64,000 nucleotides of DNA from Terriglobia bacterium (GCA_963664115.2 CAXWPJ010000002.1:640001-704000); one strand, 5' to 3'. Shown: positions 14,971 through 49,410, counted from the stretch's first letter. Numbers and translations are program-made. The notes: generated from the letters alone by a model not told the origin.

Positions 14971-17385
14971 TTGAATCGTCCCTGGATTCTTTCTGTCCTG
15001 ATCCTGTTCCTGATCGCTGGCATCCCGACACTGGCGCGCGCGCAGTCGTCCGGTAGCGTTGAGGGCTTCATTGCCCTGCCGACCGGAGACCCTGTGGGCC
15101 GTGCAACCGTGCTGCTCTCCGGTCTGGACCGCGTGGCCGAAACCGACGCCAATGGCCGCTTTCGTTTCGACAACGTACCGGTAGGGACATATGGCTTGGT
15201 GGCATATCGGTGGCTCATGTCGGCTGAAGTCGACCAGGTTCTGGTCGGGCAAGGTCAGACCGGGAACGTCCGAATGCAGCTCGGGTCTGCCCTGGTGGTA
15301 ATGGAAACAGCCCGGCCGGCCGATCCGGCAAGGCTTGCCGAAGCCCCCGAAGCAGGTCTGGTGGCGTCGGCAAATTCCCAATCTCTTGAAGTGCCTGTGA
15401 ACGCCGTGCAGAACCGTTCGACCCCGATCAGCACGTTTGATATGACCCGTGCCGGAGCCTCGACGCTCGGCGATGCAATGGATTCCCGACTGGGATTTAA
15501 CACCCGAAGCTTCGGCCAGAGTATCTCGCGGCCAATTTTCAGGGGATTCGATGGAGACCGGGTTCTGATCCTCGGAGACGGACTTTCTGGTGGGTCGCTT
15601 GCCTACCATTCAGGTGACCATTTCGAGCCGTTTGCCCCGGGCACGATCGAACGGATCGAGTTCCTGCGCGGGCCTTCGACGTTGTTGTACGGCAACAGCC
15701 TGGTCGGCCGTGCGATCAATGTCGTCGGACCTGGCCGGACCCGAACGCCGGCTTCGGGTGAAGGCTGGCGTGGGCGCACGTCCTCCGGATTCGGCTTCGG
15801 TGACGCGTATGCCGGCAGTTCTGTCCAGGCCGAGTACGCGAGCGGCAACTGGCAGTTTTCGCTGGCCGGTAGCAGTCGCCGCGCCGGTGATTACGACTCG
15901 CCCCTCGGCTCGGTTGAGAACTCCGGGAACGGTCTGGCCGATGGCTCGGTGGGCATTACATGGTTCGACGACTCCGCGTTCATGGGTTTCAATTACAGCG
16001 TTGGTCGAGGAAGCTATGGCATACCGGTCGCACCCGAATTCCGATCTGCTAACGCAGCGATCCCCATACCGGATGCAGTCGATGTCGAGTTCCGTCGACA
16101 TGGTGTTGAGTTGTTCGGTGGCGCTCGTGCTGAGTACCTCGCGTTCGAGGGTTTCGAATTCTCGGCGAGTTACAGTTACTGGGACCACGATGAAATCGAA
16201 ACTTTCAATGATGTTGGTCCGTCCATCGCCACAAATTTCGGAAATCGGGTCTTGAGTTACCGCGCTTGGTTTGACCAGAAACGAGCCGGTGTTCTCGACG
16301 GCCGAATCGGATTCTCCACCTCGACCAGGGAATATCGGGCGAACGGCCGGGAGCAATTGTTGCCATCGGTCCGCCGTAACAATCTTGCGGTGTTTGCCGT
16401 CGAAGAACTCGATCTCAGTCCGTTTCTGTTAGAGATGGGTGGCCGTATCGATTATGCGGGAGATGGAGTGCGCGGCTTGCTGACCCGCCGGATCAACCCT
16501 CTTGACGCGGACGCCGGATTCGCGCAGGACTTTTTCCGGGGTCGGTCCTTTGTCGGGGGAACAGGATCCCTTGGCGCGAGTGTCCAGGCCTGGGACATCG
16601 GAGAATTCAGGGTCGACCTGACCAGTGGGTACCGGCAACCCGCAATCGAGGAGCTCTATAGTTTCGGTGCGCATGTCGGCCGTCTCACTTTCGACATCGG
16701 CGACGTCACCCTGCGAGCTGAGCGTTCCAACGGGGCCGAGATCTCATTCACCCACACGCGTCCACGGTTCAGTGCCGAGATGGATGTGTTCTATTACGAC
16801 ATCAAGAACTTCGTCTATTTCGGCCTGAACCAGAATTTCTTGCAGGGCCTTATGGAGGCGGAGTACCAACAGGGGCCGGCCCGGTTCAGCGGCGTTGAGC
16901 TGGCGCTGGATTTCCAACTGCACCGTTCAACCAGGCTGAAAGTTGGGATGGAAACCGTCCAGGCCACGCTCAGGGATCTGGGTACCTCCCCTCCCCGGCT
17001 TCCACCGTTTCGCGCAAGGTTCGGTCTGGACTACCGCCTCGGAGGTCTCCGTTTCAGTCCGGAGCTCATCGTGGCTGATTCCCGTGAGGAGGTGTTTTCG
17101 GGAGAGAATCCAACTCCCGGGTACGGACTGGTCAACATGGCCGCTTCCTATACGCTACCCCGCGAAAACATGTCGCATCAATTTGCGTTCAATGTCTTCA
17201 ACTTAGGGGACAAGCTTTACCGGGACCACAACAGCCTGCTCAAGCGCCTGGTGCCCGCATGGGGCCGTGGCTTCCGGATCACCTACGCGATGGAGTTCAC
17301 CAGACCGGCGCCTTCCGGTGGTGCATCGTCTTTCGATCAGGAAGGCCTGGGGTTGGCTGCGGGCGGGCCGACGCCATTGGACTGA
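14971..17385 (+). CDS. TonB-dependent receptor with N-terminal carboxypeptidase-regulatory-like domain (ZnuD-like motifs)
   Basis: Signal peptide; TDANGRFRF N-domain; plug SRPIFRGFDGDRV, GDH, IEFLRGPSTLLYG; barrel end VFNLGDKLY..GRGFRITY. Confidence 0.88.
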   Translation: MNRPWILSVLILFLIAGIPTLARAQSSGSVEGFIALPTGDPVGRATVLLSGLDRVAETDANGRFRFDNVPVGTYGLVAYRWLMSAEVDQVLVGQGQTGNVRMQLGSALVVMETARPADPARLAEAPEAGLVASANSQSLEVPVNAVQNRSTPISTFDMTRAGASTLGDAMDSRLGFNTRSFGQSISRPIFRGFDGDRVLILGDGLSGGSLAYHSGDHFEPFAPGTIERIEFLRGPSTLLYGNSLVGRAINVVGPGRTRTPASGEGWRGRTSSGFGFGDAYAGSSVQAEYASGNWQFSLAGSSRRAGDYDSPLGSVENSGNGLADGSVGITWFDDSAFMGFNYSVGRGSYGIPVAPEFRSANAAIPIPDAVDVEFRRHGVELFGGARAEYLAFEGFEFSASYSYWDHDEIETFNDVGPSIATNFGNRVLSYRAWFDQKRAGVLDGRIGFSTSTREYRANGREQLLPSVRRNNLAVFAVEELDLSPFLLEMGGRIDYAGDGVRGLLTRRINPLDADAGFAQDFFRGRSFVGGTGSLGASVQAWDIGEFRVDLTSGYRQPAIEELYSFGAHVGRLTFDIGDVTLRAERSNGAEISFTHTRPRFSAEMDVFYYDIKNFVYFGLNQNFLQGLMEAEYQQGPARFSGVELALDFQLHRSTRLKVGMETVQATLRDLGTSPPRLPPFRARFGLDYRLGGLRFSPELIVADSREEVFSGENPTPGYGLVNMAASYTLPRENMSHQFAFNVFNLGDKLYRDHNSLLKRLVPAWGRGFRITYAMEFTRPAPSGGASSFDQEGLGLAAGGPTPLD

Positions 17386-17409
17386 TCACACCATATCTGG
17401 AGGAAGAAG

Positions 17410-19056
17410 ATGAAGAAAGCCGATTCCCTGGCTTTTCTCGCGGTGTTTATTTCTCTTCTGCTTTCTGTGCCGACGACGAGGGCTCAGGAAGCGGATTTCG
17501 GCGACATTGAACTCAGGCGGGCGCCGCTTGTCGGGGAGGCCCGGTTGTCGCTGCAGCGGACCGTCGAAATCGCGCTGGAGAGCAACCCCGACCTCGTCGT
17601 GGAAAGGCTCCGAATAGAGCAGTCCCGGGCGGGTGTCGAGGAAGAAAAAGGCGTCTACGACCCAGTCTTTTCCATGTCCGGTCTTGCAGGACGGCGAGAC
17701 AACGTCATCGCGAGTAGATTTTTTCCGACCGGTGAATTCACCGAAGAGAATTTCGTTTACGGTGCCGGCCTGAACGGGGTGACGCACTTGGGATCCCGTT
17801 ACAGTCTGGATCTGAACTATCAACGTCAGATCTCAACGTCGAACACCCAATCTTTGAGTCCCCAGTACTCGGCTACGCTGGATCTGACTTACAGCCAGCC
17901 TCTGTTTCGCGATTTTGGCACCGATGTGACGCTGACCCAACTCCGGATTGCGCAGCGCGAACAGGACATTTCAGAAGAGAATCTGGCGATTGGTCTGACC
18001 AGCCTGATCTTCGAGGTCGTCGAATCGTACTGGAACCTGGTCTTTGCCACCGAGGACCTGGCTGTACGTCGCGCAAGCTTCGAACTGGCTGAAGCTTTGC
18101 TCGAGCAGACCGAAACGCTTTTTGAATCCGGACAATTATCTGAACTCGACGTCCTCGAGGCGCGGGCGGGTGTCTTCGAGCGACGCGAAGACGTAATCCG
18201 CTTCGAGAACCAAGTCGCTGGGGTCGAAGATCTCCTCAAAATTCTGATGTACGCGGACATGGCAGTTGTGAGCGTGACGCCGACCGAGCCGCTGATCGTA
18301 GTCCCCGTAGATCCGAACCCTCAGGAAAGCAACGACCGGGCTCTGGGTCGACGACCCGAGATCTTGAGGCTCCAGACCGTGCTCGAGCAGCGGCAGAACG
18401 AAACGATTTTTGCGTCCAACCAGGTGCGCCCACGCATCGACCTGAACTTGACGTACGGGATGAGTGGGCTGTCGGGAAGACCCAACTTGACACTCGTAAA
18501 TCCTGGAAATCCGCTACAGGGTTTTGCCGGAAGCACCGTCGCCGGTTCGGTGTTTGCGGGCCTGACACGGCCTCTGGGCGCGTTCAATCGGTTCTTCAGC
18601 GGCGACTCCTTCGACAACTGGAGTGTCGAGTTGCGTGTGGAACTACCCCTGCGCAATCGAACCGCTGAAGCCCGACTTGCCAATGCGGGACTGCGCGAGA
18701 AAGAAAGCCAGGTCACGCTGGCCACCGTTGAGGAACAGGTCGTATTCGAAATCCGCCAGGCGCTGAGGGACCTTTCCACGGCAACCGAGAGCATCGATGC
18801 GTCGCGCGAGGCAGTCCGCTATGTTGAGGACCAGCTCGTTGCGACGCGTACGCGGTTCGAAGCCGGCCTGTCAACCAGCTACGACGTTCTGCGTGTGCTC
18901 GAAACGCTGGCCCTGTCACGGCGGCGCGAGTTGCAGGCCTTGACCGACCACAACATTGCCCGCGCTGCGTTGAGTCTGGCCGAAGGCCGTATTCTGGAAG
19001 ACTTCAACGTCGAGGTGGGTGGGGCATCCCGCTCCAATTCGGGGACATCCTTTTAG
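17410..19056 (+). CDS. TolC-family outer membrane channel
   Basis: GGAGG RBS; signal peptide; LSLQRTVEIALESNPDL, YSQPLFR, VVESYWNL, RFEAGLSTSYDVL. Confidence 0.92.
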   Translation: MKKADSLAFLAVFISLLLSVPTTRAQEADFGDIELRRAPLVGEARLSLQRTVEIALESNPDLVVERLRIEQSRAGVEEEKGVYDPVFSMSGLAGRRDNVIASRFFPTGEFTEENFVYGAGLNGVTHLGSRYSLDLNYQRQISTSNTQSLSPQYSATLDLTYSQPLFRDFGTDVTLTQLRIAQREQDISEENLAIGLTSLIFEVVESYWNLVFATEDLAVRRASFELAEALLEQTETLFESGQLSELDVLEARAGVFERREDVIRFENQVAGVEDLLKILMYADMAVVSVTPTEPLIVVPVDPNPQESNDRALGRRPEILRLQTVLEQRQNETIFASNQVRPRIDLNLTYGMSGLSGRPNLTLVNPGNPLQGFAGSTVAGSVFAGLTRPLGAFNRFFSGDSFDNWSVELRVELPLRNRTAEARLANAGLREKESQVTLATVEEQVVFEIRQALRDLSTATESIDASREAVRYVEDQLVATRTRFEAGLSTSYDVLRVLETLALSRRRELQALTDHNIARAALSLAEGRILEDFNVEVGGASRSNSGTSF

Positions 19057-19069
19057 TCTGGAGCCCAAC

Positions 19070-19885
19070 ATGAAATCAACGATTCGAATAATGTGCGGCG
19101 TGTTGGCCCTCGGCGTCGGCTCTGGCCAGTTTCTTGCTCAACAAGCCGCGACCGGTGTCGTGCGAGCCGAAGAGGCCGTCATCGTTCGCAGCGAAGTTGT
19201 GGGCATCGTCGACCAAATCGATGTCCAGGAAGGCCAGCGCATATCGGAAGGCGAGCCGCTCGTGCACCTGCGGAAGGACCTCCAGGAGATCGGTCTCCGC
19301 CTCGCAGCGGCACGGCTGGATCGGGCTGAAGCCACCGCGGCCGCCTCGGAGGTGACGCTTGAGAATGCCCGGCACACTCTGGCACGAGTGGAAGTCGCGG
19401 CAACTGCGCTGACCGAAAAGGAATACGAGGACGTCATCGATGAGGTGCACCGTTTGGAGGCGCTGCTAAAGGCGCAGGAGGCCGAGGTCGTCGAGTTCCG
19501 CGTGGAGCAGGATCTTCGCCAGCAGGAGTTTGACGCCCGCTCGATTCGTGCCCCCTTCGACGGTACCGTCACAGCGGTCTATCTGGTGCGGGGCGACGCC
19601 GTGGCGCCTCTGGAAACGCCGATTCTGGCCCTCGTGCTTCTGGATCAACTGTACGTCGAGCTGGCACTGCCGGTGTCTGAACTCCCCAGACTCGCAGAAG
19701 GCATGCGGGTTGGAATCGACGTGGAAAGCGAAGTCCTTGGCCCGGCCGGACAGGTGGGCGGTGTCATCCGATATATCAATCCCACCGTCGACCCGTCGAG
19801 TCGCACGTTCCTGGTTAAAGTCGGATTTTCCGATCCGCCCGGACAGATCCGACCTGGAATGCGGGCTGACGTCGAGCTGCCATGA
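19070..19885 (+). CDS. Membrane-fusion (periplasmic adaptor) protein
   Basis: Lipoyl half-motifs GIVDQIDVQEGQ and IRAPFDGTV, coiled hairpin, INPTVDPSSRTF, RPGM. Confidence 0.9.
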   Translation: MKSTIRIMCGVLALGVGSGQFLAQQAATGVVRAEEAVIVRSEVVGIVDQIDVQEGQRISEGEPLVHLRKDLQEIGLRLAAARLDRAEATAAASEVTLENARHTLARVEVAATALTEKEYEDVIDEVHRLEALLKAQEAEVVEFRVEQDLRQQEFDARSIRAPFDGTVTAVYLVRGDAVAPLETPILALVLLDQLYVELALPVSELPRLAEGMRVGIDVESEVLGPAGQVGGVIRYINPTVDPSSRTFLVKVGFSDPPGQIRPGMRADVELP

Positions 19886-19912
19886 TGCCTGGAGACATTC
19901 GATAAGGTTTAA

Positions 19913-21775: not shown

Positions 21776-21781
21776 TGATCG

Positions 21782-23935
21782 ATGGCCTTCGGTAATACAT
21801 TCAGCGAATCCTGGCACCGGGTGGCCGGGCTGCGGATCAGCCTGCGGCCCACCGTATCGGCAAGGAAGCAGTTTTTCCGCGGTGAGACCTGGTACGTACT
21901 GGAAGACCCCTTCAACAACAGTTTCTTCCGCTTGCGTCCCGAAGCTTACGAATTCGTTTCCCGCCTGGCACCGGACCGCACGGTTGAAGAGGTTTGGGAA
22001 GGTTGCCTGACGCGCAAACCCGAGGACGCTCCGGGGCAGGAAGACGCGATCCGGCTGCTCAGCCAACTCTATTTCGCAAACCTGTTGTATTTCAAAACGG
22101 CCGGCGACAGCGAGGCGTTGTTTGAGCGGTACCGGCAGCGCCGCCAGCGGGAAACCAAATCCAAGCTCATGTCGATCATGTTCATGCGCATTCCCATGAT
22201 CGATCCCGATCAGATGTTGCGCGCCGTTATGACGGCGATTCGTCTGTTCATCAGCCCGATCGGATTGGCGATATGGGTTGGGGCTCTGGGTTACGCGATC
22301 AAGCTCTTCTTCGACAACTTCGCCGAAGCCGCTGACCAGACCCAGGCCATTCTGGCGCCGTCGAACCTCTTCCTGCTCTATCTGGGCCTGATCGTCACCA
22401 AGACCGTCCATGAGTTCGGCCACGCCATCGTCTGTCGACGGTACGCCGGAGAAGTGCACACGATGGGCATCATGCTGCTGGTGTTCACGCCGATCCCCTA
22501 CATGGACGCCACGTCGAGCTGGTCGTTCCGAAGCCGATGGCAGCGCGCGTTCGTGGGCGCGGCGGGCATGATCTTCGAGCTGTTTGTCGCGTCGATTGCA
22601 ACCGTCGTGTGGGCCAATACCGATGAGGGCACTATACACAGCCTGGCGTACAACATGATGTTCGTCGCGTCGATTTCGACCCTGGTATTCAACGCCAACC
22701 CGCTGCTGCGCTTCGACGGTTACTACATCCTCTCGGACCTGGTCGACATTCCGAACCTGTCGAACCGGTCGTTCCGGCAGATCCGTCACGTCGTCGAGCG
22801 CTACGGATTCGGATACCTGGAATCCGAGAGCCCGTCGGATTCGATGCGCCAGGCCACGCTGCTTGGCGGTTTCTGCGTCCTGAGCGCGGTCTACAAGGTC
22901 CTCGTGTTCACTGGAATCGTTCTGTTCGTGGCCGACAAGCTGTTTCTGGCCGGATTGATCATGGCGGCGGTGTGCGTGTTTGCCTGGCTGGTCGTTCCGT
23001 TAACTCGGCTGCTGACCTACATAGCGACCGGTCCGCACCTGGCGCGGAAGCGGGCCCGCGTTGCCCTGGTTTCGCTCGGTACACTTGGCGTCGTTTTCGG
23101 ATTTCTGGGCGTCTTCCCCTTCCCCAATCATTTCCGTGCCGATGGCGTTCTCGAAGCCGCCCGATTCCAGCTCGTCGCCAACGATGCGTCCGGCTACGTC
23201 GTTGCGGTGCGGACACCACCGGGTGCAACGGTCCAGCCGGGAACCCCGCTGTTCGAACTGGCCGATCCCGAGCTTCAGTTCTCGATCGATTCGGCCGAAG
23301 CCGAGCGTCGGGAAACCCTGGCCTTTATGCAACGGGCCCTGGACAGGCAGATCGCCGAAATTGAGCCGATTCAGAAACGGCTGGACACCATCGAGCAGAA
23401 GATTGCCGACCTGGAACAGGTTCGCGAATCTCTGCTCGTGGTAGCCGCACAAGAAGGTATCTGGGTCGCGGCCGAGTCCGGTCAGCTCGACGGGTCGTGG
23501 GTCCAGCGCGGTTCGATCCTGGGCCAGGTCATCGACGAGGGTCAGTTCCGGTTTGTGGCCGCTGTTCTCCAGGACGAAGCGTCCAACCTGTTCGCCGAAG
23601 CGATTCGAAAGGCCGAGGTCCGTGTTCGCGGACAAGGGGGATTGACCGTCCCGGTCCAGTCCTATGAAGCCATTCCCTTCGAATACCGAAACCTCCCCTC
23701 GGCTGCGCTGGGCTGGCTGGGCGGTGGTGACGTGCCGGTTGCCGCCGATGACGAGACCGGTGTGGCGGCCACCGAGCCGTTCTTCCTGATCTACGCCGAT
23801 CTGGACGACGTGGGTGAGGTGGCGTATCTCCGCGGTCGGCGTGGCGAGATCCGGTTCACCCTGGAGCCGCAGCCGCTGCTGGCGCAGTGGTACACGAAAT
23901 TCCGCCGGTTATTGCAGGAGCGGTACCAGATTTGA
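21782..23935 (+). CDS. PqqD/RRE-like - peptidase M50 (site-2 protease) - HlyD adaptor fusion
   Basis: N-terminal YVLEDP..FFRL..TVEEVW..LSQLY..NLL; HEFGH zinc motif and NANPLLRFDG in a TM region; C-terminal biotinyl/coiled adaptor. Confidence 0.85.
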   Translation: MAFGNTFSESWHRVAGLRISLRPTVSARKQFFRGETWYVLEDPFNNSFFRLRPEAYEFVSRLAPDRTVEEVWEGCLTRKPEDAPGQEDAIRLLSQLYFANLLYFKTAGDSEALFERYRQRRQRETKSKLMSIMFMRIPMIDPDQMLRAVMTAIRLFISPIGLAIWVGALGYAIKLFFDNFAEAADQTQAILAPSNLFLLYLGLIVTKTVHEFGHAIVCRRYAGEVHTMGIMLLVFTPIPYMDATSSWSFRSRWQRAFVGAAGMIFELFVASIATVVWANTDEGTIHSLAYNMMFVASISTLVFNANPLLRFDGYYILSDLVDIPNLSNRSFRQIRHVVERYGFGYLESESPSDSMRQATLLGGFCVLSAVYKVLVFTGIVLFVADKLFLAGLIMAAVCVFAWLVVPLTRLLTYIATGPHLARKRARVALVSLGTLGVVFGFLGVFPFPNHFRADGVLEAARFQLVANDASGYVVAVRTPPGATVQPGTPLFELADPELQFSIDSAEAERRETLAFMQRALDRQIAEIEPIQKRLDTIEQKIADLEQVRESLLVVAAQEGIWVAAESGQLDGSWVQRGSILGQVIDEGQFRFVAAVLQDEASNLFAEAIRKAEVRVRGQGGLTVPVQSYEAIPFEYRNLPSAALGWLGGGDVPVAADDETGVAATEPFFLIYADLDDVGEVAYLRGRRGEIRFTLEPQPLLAQWYTKFRRLLQERYQI

Positions 23936-25917
23936 TCGTTCCCAGCCATGACTACATGCGGACGGCCACGGTGGAACCGCCCGAGTTTCATCGTGGGTGG
24001 GATGGGGCGGCCTACGGCATCGTCGGCGCGTGGAAACGCCGACCAACCACACTCGGCCGCTTCGGGCGCCAGGCGGACCGGATCTATGACATGGCCGGCC
24101 GGCTTGGACATTTGTCCGACAGCGCTCTTCGGGAGCGCATGTCCGGATTTCGGGAGCGATTCCGGTGCCACCGGGTCCGGGATGACGCGGTGGTCTCCGA
24201 GGCTCTGGCCGCGATCGTCGAGGCCGCTGAACGGAGGCTGGGACTGCGGCCATACCCGGTGCAGATCGTCGGTGCCCTGGCCATGGATCACGGATTTCTC
24301 GCCGAGATGGCCACCGGCGAAGGGAAGACGCTCACCGCCTGCCTGCCGATGATCCTGGCCGCCTGGACCGAGCGCCCCGCACACCTGGTCACGGTAAACG
24401 ATTACCTCAGCGACCGCGATGCAACGGAGATGGGTCGCCTCTACGCTTTCTGCGGTGTTTCAGCTGCGGCGGTGACCGCCCCTATGGACCAGCGCGAACG
24501 GTACCGGAACTACCAGAAAGACGTCGTCTACGTCACCAGCAAGGAGCTGGTCGCTGACTTTCTCCGCGACCGGCTGCGGTTGGGCAAACTCGAGCATCCC
24601 ACACGACGGCTGATCGCCGGCATGTTGCCCGGCGGTACCATCCGGCCCGACGAAATCGTGATGCGCGGTCTGGACACCGTGATCGTCGACGAGGCCGACA
24701 GCGTTCTGATCGACGAGGCGGTGACGCCGCTGATCATCTCCCGGGCCCGCGATAACGAGACGCTGCGTGAAGCGTGCCGCATCGCGAGCGAGATTGCAGA
24801 TACGCTGGAGCCCGGCAGCGACTATCAGGTCGATGAGCGGTACAAGGAAGTCCGGATCACCGACGCCGGCGAGGCCCGGGTTCTTGATGCCGCGGCAAAA
24901 CTGCCCGGCGTCTGGCAGGGGACCCTGCGCCGCGAGGAGTTGGTCAAGCAGGCGTTGACCGCGCGCGAATTCTATATCCGGGACAAACAGTACGTCGTCG
25001 ACGACGGCCGATTGACGATCGTCGATGAGTTCACCGGCAGACTGATGCCGAACCGGTCCTGGCGGGCGGGCCTCCACCAGGCCGTTGAAGCCAAGGAAGG
25101 CCTGGATGCCACGCTGCCGACCGAGACCCTGTCCCGGCTGAGTTTTCAGCGGTTCTTCCGGCAGTTCCGGCGAATCGGCGGGATGACAGGGACGGCCAGC
25201 GAAGCAGCTTCCGAGTTCTGGCACATCTACGGGCTGCCCGTCCTTCGGGTCCCGACACACCGGCCGATGGTGCGCGATACGTATCCGGACCGGGTATTTG
25301 CGACCCGGGACGAGAAATTCAACGCGATCGTCGATGAAATCGCGGCCTGTCACGAGTCCGGCCGTCCCGTTCTGGTCGGAACCCGAAACGTCGAAGCCAG
25401 TGAGACTCTCGCCTCACTGCTCCGGTCCCGGAACCTGGAATTCAACCTGTTGAACGCCACCCACCACAGCGACGAAGCACGCATCGTGGCTGCGGCCGGC
25501 CAGCCCGGCAACATCACTATTGCGACGAACATGGCCGGACGTGGGACCGATATCAAGCTGGGCCGCGGCGTGGGAGCCATGGGCGGGCTCCACGTCATTG
25601 CCACCGAGCGCCATGAGGCGCGGAGAATCGACCGTCAGCTCTTCGGACGATGCGCACGACAGGGCGACCCCGGCAGCGCGCGGGCCTATATCAGCGTTGA
25701 TGACGAACTAATCAAGCGCTTTGTGCCGGTCTGGGTACGGAACGGGCTCGAAACTGCCGTTGCCGCCGATTTGCCGGCCGCATCGCAGATGGCGCATAGG
25801 GTGTTTCGATATGCGCAAAAGGCGGCCGAAAAACTCGCATTTCGGCAGCGCGCCTCGGTGCTGCGTGCCGATGAGCACCTGGAACGGAGCCTTGGTTTCG
25901 CCGGTCCCGGCAGCTGA
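23932..25917 (+). CDS. Secondary SecA-like DEAD ATPase (C-terminally short)
   Basis: MATGEGKT Walker A, TVNDYL, IVDEADSVLIDEA, IVDEFTGR, GMTGT, TNMAGRGTDI, QLFGRCARQGDPG; ~660-676 aa. Start uncertain (TTG 23932 overlaps the upstream stop; the track gives 23887). Confidence 0.9.
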   Translation: MIVPSHDYMRTATVEPPEFHRGWDGAAYGIVGAWKRRPTTLGRFGRQADRIYDMAGRLGHLSDSALRERMSGFRERFRCHRVRDDAVVSEALAAIVEAAERRLGLRPYPVQIVGALAMDHGFLAEMATGEGKTLTACLPMILAAWTERPAHLVTVNDYLSDRDATEMGRLYAFCGVSAAAVTAPMDQRERYRNYQKDVVYVTSKELVADFLRDRLRLGKLEHPTRRLIAGMLPGGTIRPDEIVMRGLDTVIVDEADSVLIDEAVTPLIISRARDNETLREACRIASEIADTLEPGSDYQVDERYKEVRITDAGEARVLDAAAKLPGVWQGTLRREELVKQALTAREFYIRDKQYVVDDGRLTIVDEFTGRLMPNRSWRAGLHQAVEAKEGLDATLPTETLSRLSFQRFFRQFRRIGGMTGTASEAASEFWHIYGLPVLRVPTHRPMVRDTYPDRVFATRDEKFNAIVDEIAACHESGRPVLVGTRNVEASETLASLLRSRNLEFNLLNATHHSDEARIVAAAGQPGNITIATNMAGRGTDIKLGRGVGAMGGLHVIATERHEARRIDRQLFGRCARQGDPGSARAYISVDDELIKRFVPVWVRNGLETAVAADLPAASQMAHRVFRYAQKAAEKLAFRQRASVLRADEHLERSLGFAGPGS

Positions 25918-26000
25918 ATTCAAGTTGCTGTCGGGCATTTCCCTAGGGATTATTCCCCTGGAAAAATGAGTGGCGGGGCGTGTTTTTGGCGTGTCACTCC

Positions 26001-26030: not shown

Positions 26031-26075
26031 ATCCTAGCTTTAAAGCTTAGAATTACTGGGAAGAGAAAGCTCAAT

Positions 26076-38000: not shown

Positions 38001-41000
38001 CAGTCTGGTGACGACACGATCAATGTCGGTGACACGGTCGACAATGTCGATGCTGGAGACGACTACAACACCACCGATCAGATATCCGCGCTCCTGAAGA
38101 TTGACGGCGGGACTCCTCCAGTCGGCAGCGACATTCTGAATATCTTCGATTCAGGCGATACGACCGACAACATCGGCTTCCTGACCGACGATGGGACCAC
38201 AACCTCGATTACGGGCCTCGACATGTCGAACGGCATCGAATACGTCGACATCGAGGAGCTGAACGTCTTCCTTGGATCGGGTGACGACATCTTCAACGTT
38301 TCCGGTACGGGCTCCGAGACGTGGATCTACGCCGGTTCGGGCGACGATGCGGTCAACATCAATCGGATCGAAGATGAAACGGTCGTGTTCGGCCAGACCG
38401 GTGATGATCGATTCCATGTTGCGGTGACAATCGACCAGGCAAGCGGCTTCCTTGTCGACGTCGATGTCAACGCCGAAGATCCGCTCATCGATCCCCGCAA
38501 TACGGGAACGGGTGCAAATGAAATTTCACCGGTCAACATCGCTCGCAACAGTCAGAACCTGATTCACGCCGAACTGACAATTGACGGCCGTGACGGTGGC
38601 GACCAGTACACGATTTGGCTTGCCAGTTCGGGCGCTGCGCTGATCAACGTCTTCGACACCGGCGCGGTCGGTGGAGATTTCCTGACCGTCTTCGGCTCGG
38701 ACGGCGATGATCTGTTCCTGATGCGTGCCGGTTTCGGCTCGAAGGACCTCAGTGCCCCGTACCAGCCGGACACACCTGCCCAGGTCACAGCGTCACGTGC
38801 GGACCTGGTCCCCGGCGACCTGGCTGCCTTTGGCACTGCGCGCGTGGGCCTGGTGGCACTGCTCAATAATGGCCGTCAGAGCACTGCAGCCGACGTCGAG
38901 CGGGTGAACTACAGCCGGAACATCGAGCTGAACTCGGGGATCAACGGCAACCTGATCGTTCAGGGTGTCGGCGGACGCGATGAATTCTACGTCGACGACA
39001 ACCTGGCGCCGACGCAGCTGTTCGGTGGCAGCACGGCCAACTACTTCCAGTTCGGGCAGCTCTACCATTCCCCGCGCGCCGACAACATCTTTGCCGGAAT
39101 TGCCGATATCGCCGACGAGTTCCAGACCGTCGAGACAACCCGCGGATTCCTGAGCAACGGCAACAGCTTCGACCTGACGGCCATCGGCGCCGTCAACGGA
39201 CCGAACGAATTCGTCGTCCTGAACAACCAGGCAACTTTGAACCTGCTTGGCGGCGACGACGACGACATGTTTACGATTCGGTCTTTCGCGCAGGTGGGCT
39301 CGGTGGATTCCTCCCGTCGCGGGGTGGATATCTCGACCGGTGGCGGAACGAACCAGATTGAGTATGTCGTCGGCGCCCCGATCAACATTGACGGCGGCGG
39401 CGGATTCAACACGCTCAAGGTCATCGGCACCGAGTTCGGAGACGATTACGTCGTTACCGAAAACGGCATTTTCGGTGCGGGCCGCACGGTCAACTTCGTC
39501 AACATCCAGCAGCTCGAGATCGATGCGGCCGAGGGCAACGACCGGTTCTTCATCGTCAGTACTTCTCCCGAGACGTCGGTCATCCTGTCGGGCGGTTTGG
39601 GATCGGACGTCTTCTTCGTCGGTGGTGATGCCCCCGACATCATCAGCCGTGACCTGCTGGGTCACAGCGGCATCATCAGCCACGGCGTCGGAAGCGACGA
39701 TGCATCATTCGACGGCACCAAGGTCAATGAGATTTCTGCGAACGTTGGTGACGACGACGAGGCCGGAATCGTCATCACCCAGTCTGAAGGCGACACGGTT
39801 GTCGTAGACGGTGTTCGGAGTGACAGCTACACGGTTGTCCTGACGCGCCAGCCGTCTGCAGATGTGACCGTGACCGCTTCGGCACCGCGCGGACTCGTCC
39901 GCGATGCTAGTGGTCGTGTCGAACTGCGGCCGACGGCGCAGCTTTTCGATTTCGAGATCGGAACCTACGCCGACACCGTCGAGTTAGTCTTTACGCCCGG
40001 CAACTGGGATACGCCGCAAACGGTCTGGATCCAGGCGGCGACCGGTCAACCGCACACAGGCATCACCAACGGATTCATCAGTCACGATGTCGCCGGAGAC
40101 CGCGTGCCGGGTACCACGACCCAGGCCCTGCGTGTGGTCGGTCAGGATCCGAATCGGCTCGTGGACACGAGTGCCAACTTCGGAGGAAACGACAGCCTGC
40201 GTGGCGCGACCGTCGTCATCACCGAAGGTCCTGGAAAGGGTCTGACGCGCAACGTCATCGGAAATACTGACACCACCTTAATCCTCGACAAGCCCTGGTT
40301 CCTGGATGAAGTGTCCGCCGGTTCGGCCGGTTCGGCGGCAAACCAGAGCGACTACGAAGTTCGACTCTATGAAGGCCTTGCGATTCCCGTCGTATCGGTG
40401 AAGGTCTACTTCCCTGACGCCGGAGCCGCCATCATCGCGCCGGGCGGAATCCTGAGCGTGATCGAGCAGCCCGAAGGCGCGGGATACGCGTTTGGTGCCC
40501 GGACCCGATTCGAGGATAGCTATCAGGTAGTTCTGACCGAGCGTCCGGGTCCGGCCGAATCGGTCACGGTGACCATTGACACGGGTTCCAGCGGACTCCG
40601 GGCCAATCAGGCCAGCCTCACTTTCGACGAAAACAATTGGGATCAGCCGCAAACGGTTCGAGTCGCGATCGGATCCGATGACATCGTCGAGAAGACGGAA
40701 CTGCTTGAGATCGAACACTCGATCGCCGGCGAAGCGATGGAGTCGCTCTTCGTTCGTGTCACCGACGGCGATTCGTCGAACGTCGTGGTCACCGAGACCG
40801 CCGGGTCGACCAGCGTCATCGAAGATTCCCTGTCGCGCACCGACATCCCGCGCGCCGATGCCTACGAAATCGTTCTGAGCCGCAGACCGACGTCAAACGT
40901 GGAAATCGTCGTCCGCGCCGAAGGCACGCGGACCAGCAAGGGCCGGGTAGTCAAGTTCGGCGAGCAGGTCGAAGTGGCCACCAACGCCTCCGGTTTCTCA

Positions 41001-44000
41001 AACACGATCACGCTCGTCTTTACGCCCGACAACTGGGATCAGGCGCAGACAGTTCGGGTCAAGGCCCTTAATGACGGTGTGGTTGACGGTGGCGACACCA
41101 AGGTCTTCCCGAGACTGGCTGACGACACGAGCCGCATCCAGGGTCCGCTCCGGATCCAGGGCGGTGGTGGCCAGGGTTCACTGGTTGGTCTGCCGATTCC
41201 AGTCTTGTTGCCCGGCGAGACGAATGAGTTCCTGCCTTCCGGCGCAATCCAGGCCCCGGAGGCAGCCGGCAGTTCGAGCGTCGTCGTCAGCGCTGACGAC
41301 TTGAGCGTCTTCATGATCAAGTACGGTCTGACGTTCGGTCAGGAGGCCGGTGCCGGGACGTTCGACGCTGTGGTAGGAAAGACGCTGCGTATACTCGACG
41401 GCCGGAACGCAACGGAGTTCGACGACCGGTTTGGCCCGCAGCCGGACGAATCTCTTCCTGAAACGTTCAACCCGGCGAATCCGGTCCACCAGCGTCTGGT
41501 GCCGTTCCGCGAGATCTTAGGCGCAACGGATTTGTTGAACGGAACCGTCAGGCTGACGTTCAACCTGAGCTGGAACTTCGCCATGACCGCCGGCGATGAA
41601 TTTGCGCTGATCAATTCCTCTCCGGCGAACTTCTTCGCCGTGGAAGATGACCAGGTCGATCTGATGCTGGTCCTCGACTCCGACGCCCGGAGCGATGAAG
41701 AAGGCCGGCTGATCTTCCATACAGAAAACGACCCCAACGTGGATATTCCGATGGCGAACCGCGGTCAGCTCATCGGTCTTGGCATGCACGACGGCCGGAC
41801 ATTGGGTGAAGGCGCCGGTGCGAAACGGCTGCCGGCGGGCATCGTCTTCGACGAGATCGAGATGCTCGACATCACGCTGGGCGGCGGCAAGGACCACTTC
41901 GTCATCGATGGAACGCACAGCGGTGCGACACGCGTCAACGGCGGAGGCGGTAACGACGTGATCGAGGTGCTCGGAATCTCCGGAGTGACGACGGTAAACG
42001 GCGGTCCGGGTGACAACACGACGACGGTCGGGGATCCGACGACCGACGGACGAACGCTTTCACGCATCGCTGCGCTGCTCAGTGTCGGTGGTGACATTCC
42101 TTCGGCGATCGCCCGGACGACGGTCCGCGGCGAACCCGATGTCTTCGCGCCCGGCGGCGGCCTGATCGCAGCGGGTTCCACCAACGAGCAGGAGATCCTG
42201 ATCAACGCCGGAGGCGGGACGTTCACGATCCGCTTCAAGGGCGTTGTTACCGACCCGGATGCGCTTCCGCCGGCCGGTGTCGAAAGCGCACCGATCAACC
42301 ACGACGCCGACGCTGCGACGATCAAGCAGGCATTGATCGATGTGGGCGGCCTGACCGACGCCGACTTCGAGGTCGTCCGGTTCGGAGACCGCATCGTCAT
42401 CCGCTTCACCGAGACAGGCCAGTTCGCCAAGAAGCCGATGCATGTCCTCGGTACGGGTTCTGGAAACCTGCTCCAGGGCGGCACGAATACGCTGAACGTC
42501 ATCGGCACGGCCGATGCGCTGAACACCTGGGCGGTTCTGACCGAGTCGACGCTGACCGGAATGGGCACGACGGTCCACAACTCGATCCAGACCGTCTTTG
42601 TCGACGACCCGCAGCAGAGGCAGGGCGAAGATGATCTCCGGAAATTCAAGCTGATCTATGACAGTGTTGAAACATCGGAGCTCGACTACTCGTCAACGGC
42701 TGCCGAGATGGAAGCGGCGCTTGAACTGCTGCCGTCGATCGGGGACGGGAACGTCAGCGTTTCCAAGGTCGACAACGTCTTCATCATTCGTTTCCAGGGC
42801 GACCTGACGAATCGGAACCTGGAACTTTCAGCAATTACGACGCGGGCTGAGGACACGCACGTCTTCGTAGGAGTCCGCGAACCCGGAATCGATAAGCTTG
42901 ACCCGACGATCTTCCCGCCGAGCGCCGAGACGCAGGCGAGAAACGATGTCCAGACCGTTCGGATCGACGCGACCGGCGGTACGTTCCGCCTCGAGGTCGC
43001 CGGCGCCTGGACGGGTGACGTAGCCTACAACGCAACGGCCGATGAAGTCCGGGATGCGCTCCAGCGCCTCGTAGGCAGCCAGTTTGCCGACGATGTCTCC
43101 GTCGTCCGGTTTGCCACGACCTACCAGGTGATGTTCCAGGGCCTGTTGCGACAGGTGATGGGCGGCGTCGGAACCGGCCTGATGAAGGTCGATACGTCCA
43201 ACCTGACCGGGACGGCCGTGATCACGACCCGGATGGACGGCATCAACTACTACTACATCGATGAGCTGAATATCGAATTCGGTTCGGGCAGCGATGTCCT
43301 GAACGTCCAGAGCACGTCGGCTGAAGAAACCAACATCGCGCTCCATGACGGCAACGACCGGATCTTTATTTCGTCCGATGCCGACCTGGATCGAAACACG
43401 CTGGCACCGGACGGCGCAGCGTACGCCTTCGACTTCCTGACCGGAAATGTTGATGGCATCGTCGGCGACCTGAACATCGATGCGGGTGACGGCCGGCACA
43501 TCATGATGATCAGCGATGAGTCGACCGAGCTCACGAAGGGTACCGAAGACGATCCGGTTACCATCCAGCGCACAGCGGCGCGGCCCGATGTCGAGATCGA
43601 GATCCTGGGCCTGAACTTCGTCGGCGGGGCGATTCGCTACGGCGCGGCCCCGGCCGGGAACTTCTTCGACGGCATCACACTGTGGGGCGGCCAGAACGGA
43701 AACGAATTCGATATCGATGCCACGCATCGGCGTGATGATGCGACGTGGCGGACGCAGACGACGCTCAACACTGGCGATGGCGCAGATACGGTCAGTGTAT
43801 CGCTGACAGCCGCAGCCGACGGATTCTTCGTTCTGAACACACAGGGAGACGGCGACGACATCGACGCCAGGACCTCGACGCTGCCGATGGTCATCTTCGG
43901 CGGTGAAGACAGCGACACGATATTCGGCGGCCAGGGTGGTGACATCATTTTCGGTGACTTGGGCAGGGTCGTTTACCGTGACGAGATCGGTGACGTATCC

Positions 44001-47000
44001 ACGGTACTCGGTCACGGCGGCACTTTCGACTCGAACAACGGCCGGAAGCTTCCCGCGTACGCCATCTTCACGGTGAATCCTCTCGTCGGCGACGTGGACA
44101 ACATTACGGCCGGAAACGGCAGCGACGTCATCGTTGGTGGTTTTGCCGGTGACACGATTTACGCCAACGAAGGCAACAACACCGTTGTGGCCGACACGGC
44201 GTGGATCGAGATTGACTTCGGCCTGAGTCACACGACGTTGCCAGACGGTCACGCGTCTGCGGTTCCGCTGAGAGTCGAGAGCGTCCTCGATACGACAGAT
44301 CTCCAGCGCGCATGGACGGACTTTGATCTTCCCATCGATCCGTTCACTCCGGCCGACCTGATCGTCGCGATCGACGGCGACACCATCGAATCCGGCTCGG
44401 GCAACGACCTGATCGCGGGCGGCCTGGGCGACGATAGGATCACAGTTGACGGTGGTGCCAACACCGTGCTGGGTGACAACGGTGTCATCACCTTCCAGGA
44501 AGGCACGCGAATCCTCAGCTCTGTCGATTCGACGTACCTGACTCGCAGTGGTGGTGCCTTCATCCAGGGTGGCAATGACACCATCACGACGGGAATCGGG
44601 TCGGACGTCGTGATCGCAGGTCTGGGTGACGACACCATCGATGCCAGCGACGGCGACAACACCGTCCTGGGTGACGACAATATTGTTATTGGCGACGAAG
44701 GTCGGATCACCTATCAGTTGACCAGCGGACTGCGGGACCGGATTGAGAGCCTGTACCTGAACGAGGACGGGTTGTCAGCGCTGGATGCGGATGGCGCTGT
44801 AGTCGGCGACGACACGATCAGCACAGGCGACGGGCACGACGTGATCATTGGCGGCCTGGGCGGACTTACGATTGAGGGCGAGGTCACGATAGCAGCCGGT
44901 GACGGCGACAACATCGTTATTGCCGATGAAGGCTTCATCCAGTACCAGGATCAGGACGACACGGACACGACGTCGGTGCTTTGGGAAGTCTCCAGTCTGT
45001 ACCTGGACAATACCGCTGAGGGCGATACTGATCTGGACACCTTTGTCCAGGGCGGCAACGAGACGATCACCACCGGTACTGGCTCCGACATCATTATTGC
45101 CGGCCTGGGTAACGACACGATCGATGCCAGCGACGGCGACAACGCCGTCCTGGGTGACGACAATATCGTTATTGGCGACGAAGGCCGGATCACCTACCAG
45201 CTGGGCAGCGGACTGCGGGACCGGATTGAGAGCCTGTACCTGAACGAGGACGGGTTCTCGGCGCTGAATGCGGATGATGCGGAAGTCGGCGACGACACGA
45301 TCAGCACAGGCGACGGGCACGACGTGATCATTGGCGGCCTGGGCGGACTTACGATTGAGGGCGAGGTCACGATAGCAGCCGGTGACGGCGACAACATCGT
45401 TATTGCCGATGAAGGCTTCATCCAGTACCAGGATCAGGACGACACGGACATGACGTCGGTGCTTTGGGAAGTCTCCAGTCTGTACCTGGACAATACCGCT
45501 GAGGGCGATGACGATCTGGACACCTTTGTCCAGGGCGGCAACGAGACGATCACCACCGGTACTGGCTCCGACATCATTATTGCCGGCCTGGGTAACGACA
45601 CGATCGATGCCAGCGACGGCGACAACGCCGTCCTGGGTGACGACAATATCGTTATTGGCGACGAAGGCCGGATCACCTACCAGCTGGGCAGCGGACTGCG
45701 GGACCGGATTGAGAGCCTGTACCTGAACGAGGACGGGTTCTCGGCGCGATGCGGATGACGACCGACACGCGAGGCGACGGGGATGACATGGATAATACCG
45801 CGGACTTACGATTGAGGGCGAGGTCACGATAGCAGCCGGTGACGGCGACAACATCGTTATTGCCGATGAAGGCTTCATCCAGTACCAGGATCAGGACGAC
45901 ACGGACATGACGTCGGTGCTTTGGGAAGTCTCCAGTCTGTACCTGGATAATACCGCTGAGGGCGATGACGATCTGGACACCTTTGTTCAGGGTGGCAACG
46001 AGACGATCACGACCGGCGAAGGGGATGACATCGTCATCGCCAGCCTGGGCAACGATGACGTTAAAGCTGGCAACGGCGACAACGTCGTCCTGGGTGACGA
46101 GGGCTCGGTTATGTTCCAGACCGGCAGCGGGTTCCTGCATGGGATCTGGAGCGAATCTCTGAACGAAGCGGGGCAAGCGCCGCAGGAAGCAGATGACGCC
46201 TCCGTCGGCAACGACACGATCACGACAGGTTCCGGGCGCGACTACGTCCTGTTCGGCTCCGGTGACAATTCGGTCGTAACTGGCGCCGGCGATGACATCG
46301 TCCTCGCCGATGGACATATCGACTTCCATGCCGGCACGAACCTGCCGGCGGTACTGCACACTGTGTTCCTCGACGGCAACAACGTGCTCCTGCCGCCGAC
46401 CAACAACGTGCTTGACGGCGGTGAGGACCAAGACATCCTGATCGGCGGATCGGGACACGACTGGATCGAGGCGGGAAGTGGCGATGACATCGTCATCGGT
46501 GACGAAGTCCGGATCAGCTTCGATCAGGGCAGAGCAGAAGATGGCTTCGTTGTCGCGGACTTCATCCAGACCGTGTTCTTCACGCCGCTCGCTCCGGTAG
46601 GGTTGGGCGACCAACCCGTTGGCCAGCTGATTCCTGGCGGCATCGACGCCATTCTCGGCCAGGAGGGTGACGACATTCTCGCCGGTGGATCGCTCGACGA
46701 CGTCATTGACGGCGGAACGGAACGCGATCAGGTGTTCGGTGACAACGTGACGCTCGACCGGCAGGGCCGCCTTGACAACAACTCGAATCAGCGATTCCGA
46801 GCCCTCACCGGTGACGAGATTTATGCGACGGAACTCAACCAGAACGGCGATCTGCTGATCGACCGCACCGACGTCGATGGCGAATACGGGGATCCGGACT
46901 GGGCTGGAAACGCTCCGTTCTGGGCCGACTTTGTCGTCACCGGCCACGATGGCCTGACGACACCGGGGCTCGTCGACCTGGTCCAGAATGACGCGAATCG

Positions 47001-49410
47001 GACCTATGGCAGCGACATTCTCGCCGGCGGCAGCAACGATGACATGATCTTCGGCCAGCGCGGTGAAGACACGATTCAGGGCGACGGATCGGTGTTCTTC
47101 GACGTCTGGAAAGTGAACGTCGATTCCAGTGTCGGCGGATTCGTCGCCGAAACGCTTAACCAATCGACTTTCGAACCCTTGAACGTCGACGGATTCGCCC
47201 CGGTCGGTCTGTTCGACGCCTTCACGTTGCGGCCTGCGGCACCCGATTATCTGCCGGCGTCGTCTGAGGCGGCCACCGACGGCGACGACTACATCGAGGG
47301 TGGTGTCGACACCGACGTCATCTTCGGCGACCTGGGTCAGAATGACATCATCGGGGGCAGCTCCAACCAGTTCGGTCTCGACTTTGCCTGGCAGCGTGCG
47401 GGTCTTTCCTTAACGGCCTTCGCCGCATCCGGTCGGCCCGTCGATGGCAGTGGCGCCGACATTCTGTTCGGTGGTGCCGGCTTGCGGATCGACCACAACA
47501 ACCCGGGCTTCGACAGCGACGACTCTCTGGTGTCCTTCGAAGACCGTCATGCACGGAACGCCAACGTCATCGTGGGTGACAACGGCAACATCTTCCGCCT
47601 CACCGGAACCGGTGGCTTCGACACGGGCGCGAACCTGACATTCAACTACGATGCCCAGGATGTCACCCGTGGCGACCTGCGCGTCAAAGCACGCGGTGTG
47701 GACCTGCTCGATTACTTCCGCTGGACGATCGCCACCGCAGCCGGTGTCGCGGTTCCTTCGCACCTGGGCTTTGACGGTGAGATCGGCGCGGGCGACCTGA
47801 TCCATGGTGGCTCGGGCGACGACGTGATCTACGGCATGGGCGGCGACAACGTGATCTTCGGTCATGGTGGCGACGACGTGATCGTCGGTGGCTACGGTAA
47901 CGACTGGATATCGGGCGGTGTCGGCGACGACGGCATTCTCGGTGATGATGGTGTCATGGCGATCTCCAGAGACAGCAGCGCCTACGGTGAGCCGCTCTAC
48001 GGGATCGATCCGATCGCAACGGGCGAGTTGACTACGGAACTGGCAGCACCTGGACCGGCATTCCACGACATTATCAATGTCGAGGGCGAGTTGACGCACA
48101 CAGCCAGACTGTTCGCCTTCATCTACGAGTTCGGCGGAAACGACATCGCTTACGGCGGTCTGGGCAGCGATTCGATCCACGGTGGCGTGGGCGACGACGC
48201 CCTCTCCGGCGCAGAGGCGCTTCCCGGATACTTCTCCGGCGAGCTGAACGAGTTGCTGAAGGCCACACAGGGCGACGGAAATACCTCTACAGAGCCGTGG
48301 TTCTTCGATACAGCGCCGTTCAACCCCGGAGACATCCTCCAGTACCAGCTGGGCGAAAGCGCCTGGTTCAGGCTCTTTAATCAGCTGGATCCGCTGCGGA
48401 TGATGCTGGTCGACTCTGCCGGCAACCGGGTCGATGCCGCCGACGTGGATATCGCATTGGCCGATTCGAACGGGCAGAATGAAATCGCCAACGTCGACTA
48501 TGACGCCACGAAGTGGTCCAGCGCAGCCACCGGCGAAGAGGTCTTCGACTTCTTCCTGAACTTCGATCCGAACGAGGGTGTGCTGGATACCCGCTTCACG
48601 ACGACAGATCCGCAAATGTCCGACGGCGACGACGTGATCTTCGGCGACCTGGGTAACGACTGGATCGTCGGCGGCACGGGACGCGACCATGTGTGGGGTG
48701 GTGCCGACGATGACGTCCTCAACGTGGACGACAACCATCTGACGACTATCTTCGAACAGCAAGATCCGATCGCTAACGATTCGGCTGACCCGTTCCAGGC
48801 GTATTCGGATATCGGCTATGGCGGAATCGGACGAGATGCCTTGCTGGCAAACACGGGTGCAGATCGAGTCATTGACTGGATCGGCGAGTTTAACAGCTAC
48901 TCGGTTCCGTTCAATCCGTTCGGTGGCCACCAGATCTCACGTCAGATCTCGCCGGGCCTCCGCGAGTTCCTCTATGAACTTGCCCGGGCTGACGGTGCTG
49001 ACCTGCTGGTCGGTGTGGAACGCGGTGGCACACCCGAGCGCAACGGTGAGCCGTTCGGCGAGACAACCGTGGTCACGTCTGCCGATGAAGCATGGGCGGC
49101 GCAGCACGGGGCTCCTCTGGATCAGCAGCCGGGCAGCTATCCGGGACGCCGTGTCCTGATGTTGCGGGAGCTTGAAGGTCCAGTGGCTGGAACGTTGAAC
49201 GTGGATAGCCCGACGACCACCGGCGGTGACACAACTCTTGCCGGAGACTCCTCGACCGGAACGGGCGATACCGCGACGTCCGATGGCGGGGCGACCGGCG
49301 ATGGGACTGGCGGTGACACCGAAACGCCCAGCACCGGAAATAACGGAAACGGCAGCGGTGGTGGGAACAGCAACGCGGGCGGCAACGGCGGCGGTAGCAA
49401 AAAGGAATAG
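26076..49410 (+). CDS. Giant LEPR-XLL / RTX repeat surface protein (~7,790 aa if one frameshift near 45745-45800 is repaired)
   Basis: N-terminal ENLEPRILLSGD; ~235-aa beta repeats; DxDGDG EF-hand-like motifs; GGxGxDxL RTX nonapeptides; Calx-beta/Ig-like modules. ORFs 26076-45758 and 45907-49410 continue the same repeat across a 26-bp-short garbled segment. Confidence 0.88.
27830..31900 (+). repeat. Internal ~705-708 bp (~235 aa) imperfect repeats within the giant gene
   Basis: GTGGACAACGCG anchor recurs at 28323, 29031 and 29736; the GPYWTD motif recurs six times. Boundaries approximate. Confidence 0.85.
44560..46100 (+). repeat. Near-identical 483-bp (161 aa) tandem repeat, about 3 units
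   Basis: GATTGAGAGCCTGTACCTGAAC anchor at 44741, 45224 and 45707 (period 483). Confidence 0.93.

Follow-up and report, generated by a model that had tools for sequence, protein, structure and literature searches.

A widespread, uncharacterised gene module lacking an ABC transporter is linked to giant LEPR-XLL proteins in a Terriglobia bacterium and other bacteria

The stretch of DNA analysed here, called the window, comprises 64,000 nucleotides from a Terriglobia bacterium (GCA_963664115.2, CAXWPJ010000002.1:640001-704000; host genome 4.9 Mb, 97% complete) and harbors a putative secretion locus. Six co-oriented open reading frames (ORFs) are located at 14971-25917, and the gene of a giant protein lies downstream. 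In this order, the six specify a TonB-dependent receptor (TBDR), a TolC-type outer-membrane efflux protein (OEP), a membrane fusion protein (MFP), a protein with GAF and HlyD domains, a Peptidase_M50 protein with an MFP part, and a SecA-like protein with SecA_DEAD, PP_bind, and P-loop matches and no SecA_SW. The genes are separated by 24, -38, 27, 6, and -49 nt, and a further 158 nt precede the giant gene. Of the 139 window ORFs of at least 100 aa, most are overlapping alternative frames; 27 window proteins, from ORFs up to position 59,523, were scanned for domains, and neither an ABC or RND protein nor secY was detected among them. An original prediction, made from the sequence alone, had described six tightly packed co-oriented genes before the giant one and a locus without HlyB-type ABC transporter or RND pump. 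Both statements hold, with spacings of at most 27 nt within the cluster and domains as described. A promoter and terminator scan gave hits at chance level only. The locus belongs to a real, widespread, and uncharacterised system.

The giant protein starts with (M)SRKQDKERYNLENLEPRILLSGD in an ORF opening with LSRKQDKERYNLENLEPRILLSGD, and it matches the LEPR-XLL family NF012209 with 31.4 bits (cut-off 17). It is acidic, has one Cys, carries RTX repeats, and contains no hydrophobic segment; its C-terminus is of low complexity and rich in Gly, Ser, and Thr. Uncleaved C-terminal signals of type I secretion systems (T1SS) are not recognisable by motif. Matches to RTX pore-forming toxins (NF033943, cut-off 1000) reach 77 and 62 bits and reflect calcium-binding repeats only. 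As assembled, the gene is divided into two ORFs, 26076-45758 (6,560 aa) and 45907-49410 (1,167 aa), by a garbled stretch of 52 nt (45748-45799) within the third copy of a 483-bp repeat. The garbled stretch has zero depth in the contigs of all four public runs compared, and the contigs of all four bridge the break with 78 nt, their depth there being roughly double that of the unique flanks; in four further runs there is almost no cover over it. The 78-nt bridge restores the frame, and therefore the gene is most likely a single ORF of about 7,786 aa, in agreement with the originally predicted size of about 7,800 aa. That the gene is naturally split was considered and rejected on the basis of the zero depth and the in-frame bridging contigs; the garbled stretch is most likely an assembly error. 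The check relied on run contigs, not raw reads, and on runs perhaps not from the assembled sample, and a real strain-specific lesion at this position is left with a small probability.

The closest relative (G301) is a named Terriglobia genome that shares the locus. It encodes two tandem LEPR-XLL giants, with frames of 5,957 and 7,897 aa, and in both the frame changes within the late repeat region that is affected in the window giant as well. At E < 1e-30, window positions 27400-34600 (giant residues ~450-2850) matched nothing in the portions of the relative's giants that were compared, and GC content drops to 0.51 at 34-36 kb. Beyond its conserved N-terminus, the cargo thus has the appearance of a mosaic.

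Table 1. Features of the locus in the window, with positions counted from its first nucleotide
Feature	Position	Strand	Evidence or remark
TonB-dependent receptor, probably outside the system	14971..17385	+	PF00593
TolC-family outer-membrane channel, 548 aa	17410..19056	+	PF02321, 157 bits, two stretches
Stand-alone periplasmic adaptor (MFP)	19019..19885	+	TIGR01730, 129 bits, cut-off 94.9
GAF protein with C-terminal MFP, 620 aa	19913..21775	+	PF01590, PF13437, PF16576
RRE, M50, and MFP protein, 717 aa	21782..23935	+	PF02163
Short SecA-like ATPase, 676-aa ORF	23887..25917	+	SecA_DEAD/PP_bind/P-loop
N-terminal leader, basic stretch and LEPR-XLL motif (YNLENLEPRILLSGD)	26076..26150	+	NF012209, above cut-off
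Giant RTX/beta-repeat protein, likely cargo	26076..49410	+	~7,786 aa, discounting the assembly break
In-frame tandem repeat, 3.1 x 483 bp	44622..46100	+	

To determine how closely tag and module are associated, four phylum samples with 874 genomes in total were searched for the M50-HlyD protein and NF012209. Thresholds for the M50 protein were E <= 1e-24 in the window's own phylum, 1e-20 in Planctomycetota, 1e-40 in the phylum of locus L007, represented by Desulfobacterales, and 1e-30 in Pseudomonadota; for the tag they were 0.001, 0.001, 0.01, and 0.01, respectively. The M50-HlyD protein is present in 168 genomes. It was found in 62 of the 66 tag-positive genomes, and a tag match in only 4 of 706 module-negative ones. 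These results are given as counts, as kin are not independent and Fisher tests overstate significance. Within the own phylum (301 genomes), a full-length orthologue was detected in five genomes and a weaker paralogue in 35 more; all four genomes with a tag (three without the unpublished G146) are among the five, and the fifth encodes a giant with EELERRILLS pointing away from the module. For Planctomycetota (201 genomes), 58 genomes with the M50-HlyD protein and 22 with the tag overlap in 21; for the L007 phylum (151), 11 and 7 overlap in four; and for Pseudomonadota (221), 59 and 33 overlap in 33. The last sample contains 55 tag genes, 34 of which share a contig with a listed M50-HlyD gene, and for 31 of these 34 the distance is at most 12 kb with gene length allowed for. 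A dedicated, ABC-less module linked to LEPR-XLL proteins, as originally predicted, is thus supported. A search for PF07595 (Planc_extracel) was uninformative, with four matches in 201 planctomycete genomes and at most 41 candidates scored per genome. One group of Pseudomonadota genomes (G661-G785) contains M50-HlyD genes of the two types described below, in numbers reaching five or more, and encodes tagged proteins of up to 19,427 aa.

The invariant core of the module is the protein with a recognition element (RRE) like those of peptides that are synthesised by ribosomes and modified after translation (RiPPs), an M50 domain, and an MFP part. Its family comprises at least 5,384 clusters at E <= 1e-60. 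The structural model of the window protein (pLDDT 76) displays an N-terminal domain of three strands and three helices, a transmembrane (TM) region, and the MFP part, which matches known MFPs with Z ~14. The N-terminal domain resembles 6jx3, a lasso-peptide B1 protein with leader (Z 9.3, rmsd 3.0, 84 aligned residues), 5v1u (Z 9.0), and PqqD (Z 8.5), placing an RRE of the PqqD fold at residues ~17-104. These Z values are middling, yet the match spans the entire RRE chain and agrees with PF05402, which is precomputed on most top homologues and scores 21.2 bits (cut-off 23.4) on the orthologue of locus L002. Foldseek with the whole model returned MFP matches only, and no structural match was listed for the M50 domain in the fold comparison, a test that says little. 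The zinc site consists of HEFGH (210-214) and NxNPxxxxDG (304-313) in a TM protein; HExxH, N304, and D312 are invariant in all 62 M50 sequences aligned from four module types. The best NCBIfam match is the daptide RRE-site-2 protease NF041824, with 158.6 bits under the cut-off of 300. A paralogue of the M50-HlyD gene (763 aa, 26% identity) stands alone at G000:C4:44265-46553, where no GAF or MFP partner is nearby and transposase-like ORFs adjoin.

The LEPR-XLL leader is a plausible signal, and the RRE is a candidate for its reader. An alignment of 20 leaders shows E16 and R18 to be invariant and no hydrophobic core. For residues 1-345 of the RRE-M50 protein and a 43-aa leader, complex prediction gave a score of 0.57, the best of three controls reaching 0.00; predicted contacts agreed to at least 84%, with a partner pLDDT of at least 58. 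Of 157 solved pairs, 116 attain the mark applied, as do 2 of 215 mismatched ones, but passes at 0.60 or below comprise only 18 solved pairs and both mismatches; the pass may also reflect likeness to solved RRE-leader complexes. That the N-terminal motif serves as export signal is plausible, and the complex prediction lends weak support to RRE-leader binding. In daptides, leaders with an ELExMEAP motif are proposed to be removed by the RRE-site-2 protease MpaP, and L(-7) and M(-4) are essential for MpaB/C processing (bioRxiv 10.1101/2023.03.08.531785). Aligned by eye, LENLEPR has hydrophobic residues at the same spacing.

The short SecA, whose true start is likely TTG 23932 judging from the sequence, retains Walker A, DEAD, motif VI, and the preprotein cross-linking domain. 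It ends about 85 residues past motif VI, compared with 316-351 in most housekeeping SecAs, and possesses neither a wing domain nor the C-terminal part of the two-helix finger. Its terminus, LGFAG, aligns with the IGLRGY tip of the finger, and therefore the second helix is gone. In canonical SecA, the wing and C-terminal regions are used with SecY, and elements absent from the short protein push the substrate. Scores for the SecA2 families are under the cut-offs (TIGR03714, 511 of 930 bits; TIGR04221, 427 of 725). The host possesses a separate, full-length housekeeping SecA (C4:167922-170666, 915-aa frame) with 38% identity to the short one. In a quick tree of 32 rows, from which G146 and a window duplicate were excluded, 11 housekeeping SecAs including the host's own are united in one clade on a long branch (1.45) with support 100, to which none of the 21 short ones belongs; two group labels were set by eye. 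The possibility that the short SecA is the only housekeeping copy of the genome, which would have spoken against the original prediction, is thus dismissed. A search for related loci yielded 18 hits, eight of them short-SecA loci and ten housekeeping SecA.

Across the family, the short SecA is optional; it marks one module clade and is not the core motor. Among Pseudomonadota, it adjoins the M50 gene at 24 of 25 loci with a high-scoring M50 protein, the 25th stopping at a contig edge, and lies within 1.5 kb at none of five loci with a low-scoring one. Ten low-scoring loci were inspected over 20 kb each. In each of the ten, a very large ORF is next to the M50 gene or close to it; MFP and/or GAF-HlyD matches are present in eight, no SecA was detected, and no ABC exporter adjoins the module. 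Over all SecA-less modules examined, the neighbouring LEPR-type proteins measure 776-7,165 aa, and only one SecA was found in the genomes concerned. In the five low-scoring-locus genomes with tagged proteins of 2,521-7,165 aa, this is a single full-length SecA each, as in G455, G468, G485, G502, and G161. In a tree with hand-chosen rows and a weak root, all 29 rows of SecA-linked M50 proteins fall into a single clade with support 99, surrounded by SecA-less ones. The window protein groups with proteobacterial sequences apart from those of other acidobacteria, which fits horizontal transfer. Tagged proteins linked to the high-scoring M50 class are longer, with a median of 8,640 aa (n=22) compared with 3,658 aa (n=9) for the other, where the class is set by M50 score, kin are not independent, and some lengths are cut by contig ends. 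The claim that the short SecA drives export is not borne out in its original form, since SecA-less modules adjoin proteins of the size mentioned and the short SecA itself is devoid of the wing and finger part.

Several observations were made on individual SecA-less modules. TolC/MFP/GAF/M50 modules of this kind adjoin LEPR-type or DUF4347 proteins at loci L105 (G455), L107 (G468), L094 (G485), and L164-L173, each in a genome with one SecA. In one planctomycete module, a PilZ-domain gene (L094:7820-8236) is located between the tagged protein and GAF-HlyD, and a similar ORF occurs at L101, hinting at control of the module by c-di-GMP. A third type, without SecA and without giants, was detected in Acidobacteriota, where GAF-MFP/MFP/RRE-M50-MFP modules are found beside small leader-plus-repeat peptides at 14 of 25 loci (modules of this type are those of L024, L025, L027, L029, L031, L032, L033, L034, L040, L041, L043, L044, L045, L047, and L102-L104; a 15th locus is doubtful, and L031 is from the unpublished G023). 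The ORFs of 54-210 aa are explained by no Pfam or NCBIfam family. Most share a common N-terminal leader followed by near-perfect repeats of 6-12 residues, and one contains the motif LEERIAP.

Of the other genes at the locus, the TolC-family ORF is under the cut-off of TIGR01844. The stand-alone MFP likely starts at ATG 19070, as read from the sequence, which would give 271 aa with a signal-peptide-like N-terminus. Hydropathy predicts a TM helix at 356-374 of the GAF-MFP protein, and its single-sequence fold (pLDDT 36.5) is unusable. The TBDR, included in the originally predicted system, was rejected as a component. It adjoins the module only in the window and in the closest relative, and no TBDR match adjoins the other modules inspected; two paralogues are encoded elsewhere in the host genome. 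The relative's copy (L001, L131-L133) is broken by a transposase-like insertion, identified as an insertion sequence by eye. The locus is flanked by an integrase-like fragment (13802-14215, by eye, without Pfam match) and an rve-family transposase (50607-51455). Because of these flanks and the lower GC content on both sides, the locus is consistent with an acquired island.

Type I secretion systems, that is HlyB-HlyD-TolC or LapBCE in the case of giant RTX adhesins, are the nearest characterised kind. They share with the window locus TolC and MFPs as well as a cargo that is acidic, poor in Cys, of RTX type, and devoid of a Sec signal, whereas the locus differs in motor and signal. No cognate HlyB- or PrtD-type ABC transporter with MFP is present at the locus, the conserved signal is N-terminal, and there are three MFP domains, two of them fused to GAF or RRE-M50. 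As a gene set, the locus falls plainly within a type defined in silico in 2015 by Kamneva, Poudel and Ward (PMC4452313), who described secondary SecA_DEAD, Peptidase_M50, HlyD, GAF, and OEP genes, in Methylobacterium extorquens AM1 among others, and remarked on the absence of an ABC transporter. They proposed that SecA serves as the ATPase and M50 as the pore; this idea, put forward again in the original prediction, is therefore not new. Their defining features are present in the window: a second SecA_DEAD protein without SecA_SW, in a clade separate from canonical SecA, and adjoining M50/HlyD, GAF/HlyD, and HlyD genes, joined in some of their loci by OEP, with no ABC transporter. The available text names no substrate, leader, or RRE domain and lists no Acidobacteria, and since that study was anchored on SecA, SecA-less modules were outside its subject. 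In the open-licence literature, the cargo, leader, and leader reader of the module were not found in print, and the part of a Chemical Reviews article consulted (PMC8277102) contains nothing on the module.

Three further systems show partial likeness. MpaP of daptides also combines RRE and M50, and ELExMEAP resembles LExLEPR; the locus protein, however, is fused to an MFP, remains under the family cut-off as given above, and has a giant substrate, and daptide clusters use ABC transporters and modifying enzymes (bioRxiv 10.1101/2023.03.08.531785). In Omnitrophota, a SecA without scaffold and wing is tied to giant proteins and suggested to aid export, but it is fused into the giant, and no M50, HlyD, or TolC is mentioned in the accessible text (bioRxiv 10.1101/2023.11.21.568195). 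The third case is that of Cag_663 and Cag_665 of Chlorobium chlorochromatii, two LEPRxLL giants with the same N-terminal motif (NF012209) and an adjoining tolC, which are exported, pass to the partner cell, and carry no known transport signals (bioRxiv 10.64898/2026.03.19.712371). That preprint proposes SapC/TolC/HlyD export with the C-terminus first, reports a recently acquired secA, Cag_1676, in the expression cluster of the giants, and does not, in the text available, tie the motif to an RRE-M50 protein. Chlorobium chlorochromatii carries a secondary SecA in the 2015 tree (PMC4452313), and we infer that it is Cag_1676.

For the locus and its relatives, an ABC-independent TolC exporter is on balance the probable function, in which the RRE-M50 protein would recognise and cut the LEPR-XLL leader and the short SecA would be an accessory feeder for the largest cargo. 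Gene content, folds, catalytic residues, and co-occurrence are results of the analysis, and binding, cleavage, route, and energy source are what we infer. The cytoplasmic RRE would quite probably bind LENLEPRILL as a beta-strand, as RiPP RREs do with their leaders. By analogy to MpaP, the M50 site would, with good but lesser probability, cut at or just past the motif. TM segments of the RRE-M50-MFP and GAF-MFP proteins may or may not, with about equal likelihood, form an inner-membrane passage, with the three MFP hairpins docking on TolC; export would therefore proceed from the N-terminus. In T1SS, calcium-driven folding outside the cell acts as a ratchet, and the RTX/beta repeats could do the same here. 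The short SecA, which would have been gained once by one module clade, might add ATP-driven feeding for the largest cargo, for which the chances seem evenly balanced. A cargo without hydrophobic signal counts in favour of this exporter, as do the LEPRxLL giants of Chlorobium chlorochromatii, which leave the cell in a species with this SecA clade.

A number of observations weigh against this exporter. The M50 fold is not known as a protein-conducting pore, and the short SecA is devoid of the elements that push the substrate in canonical SecA. No M50-HlyD match was obtained in four tag-positive genomes; G623, a fragmented assembly, is a real exception, its unmistakable LEPR protein being encoded where a contig ends; in G645, a short SecA is cut off at such an end; and the tag matches of G505 and G659 are doubtful. 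Conversely, 106 of the 168 module-positive genomes are without tag match, 35 of them with the acidobacterial paralogue. The reverse link (62 of 168) is weaker partly because the 24-position tag model misses clear motifs, as in L005 and L059. The host also encodes, unlinked to the locus, a C39-type ABC transporter with an HlyD-like protein in two copies (TIGR01846, 412 bits, cut-off 725). Finally, the Chlorobium symbiosis proteins were concluded to wait in the periplasm (bioRxiv 10.64898/2026.03.19.712371), which fits two steps better than one.

A two-step route, in which RRE-M50 and short SecA pass the cargo to SecYEG in a SecA2-like manner and MFPs and TolC then cross the outer membrane, is the best of the alternatives, albeit an unlikely one. 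Besides the periplasmic state reported for the Chlorobium proteins in the absence of the partner (bioRxiv 10.64898/2026.03.19.712371), it would account for the SecA-less modules, which could draw on housekeeping SecA, and for a module that holds no known pore protein. The leader, however, has no hydrophobic core, the short SecA lacks the parts used with SecY, and inner-membrane proteins tether two of the three MFPs.

LapD and LapG control the release of LapA, and a similar anchor-and-release arrangement is conceivable. An ABC-type T1SS encoded elsewhere would export the RTX protein C-terminus first, and the module would hold the leader and free the protein by an M50 cut under GAF/PilZ control. 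The RTX repeats of the cargo, the GAF domains of the module, and the PilZ gene in one SecA-less planctomycete module are in line with this. The host has eight ABC exporter and five TolC-family ORFs, and an ABC transporter might act in trans in view of the C39-ABC/HlyD-like pair, a candidate partner that is under the HlyB and HlyD cut-offs. The pair resides beside an IS1380 transposase on a ~12-kb segment found with the same ORF sizes at G000:C10:368001-388000 and C9:2001-22000 (L129, L130), either a real duplication or an assembly artefact. Nevertheless, HlyB or HlyD above cut-off was found in none of five other module genomes, and no ABC exporter adjoins an HlyD-like match in G310, G428, and G456, PrtD- and MacB-type pumps not having been tested in either case. 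With three MFPs and often its own TolC in the module, and several cargoes without RTX match, this arrangement is quite improbable.

Still less credible is the short SecA as an obligatory motor threading the cargo through an M50/HlyD complex. Its intact ATPase motifs and cross-linking domain, its place at 24 of 25 high-scoring proteobacterial loci, and the expression of Cag_1676 with the Chlorobium giants (bioRxiv 10.64898/2026.03.19.712371) would suit such a role, but the 2,521-7,165-aa tagged proteins next to SecA-less modules in single-SecA genomes do not; within its own clade, the short SecA could be essential. GAF and M50 domains are typical of signalling, and acidobacterial paralogues adjoin genes that resemble response regulators by eye, but a regulated-proteolysis module of GAF sensor and site-2 protease merely processing the protein is hardly credible given three conserved MFP domains and frequent TolC linkage.

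Returning to the ABC-independent exporter, it might, as a tentative extension that is somewhat less likely than not, represent a distinct secretion class assembled from RiPP parts. A fusion of RRE-M50 leader peptidase and adaptor would itself be inner-membrane receptor and translocase, exporting N-terminus first through TolC without ABC, RND, or MFS pump. The cargoes served by this one family would range from repeat peptides of ~100 aa to proteins exceeding 15,000 aa, and in one branch a truncated SecA would have joined it as a processive motor that handles the largest bacterial proteins known. If the module is indeed such an ABC-independent exporter, whether or not of a distinct class, an exit route would be at hand for several of the largest proteins of bacteria, among them the 36,806-aa symbiosis protein of Chlorobium, and the gene set of 2015 (PMC4452313) would obtain its missing cargo. 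A tag of ~25 residues would direct export, the orphan LEPR-XLL motif would gain a function, and leader recognition known from RiPPs would be tied to protein secretion.

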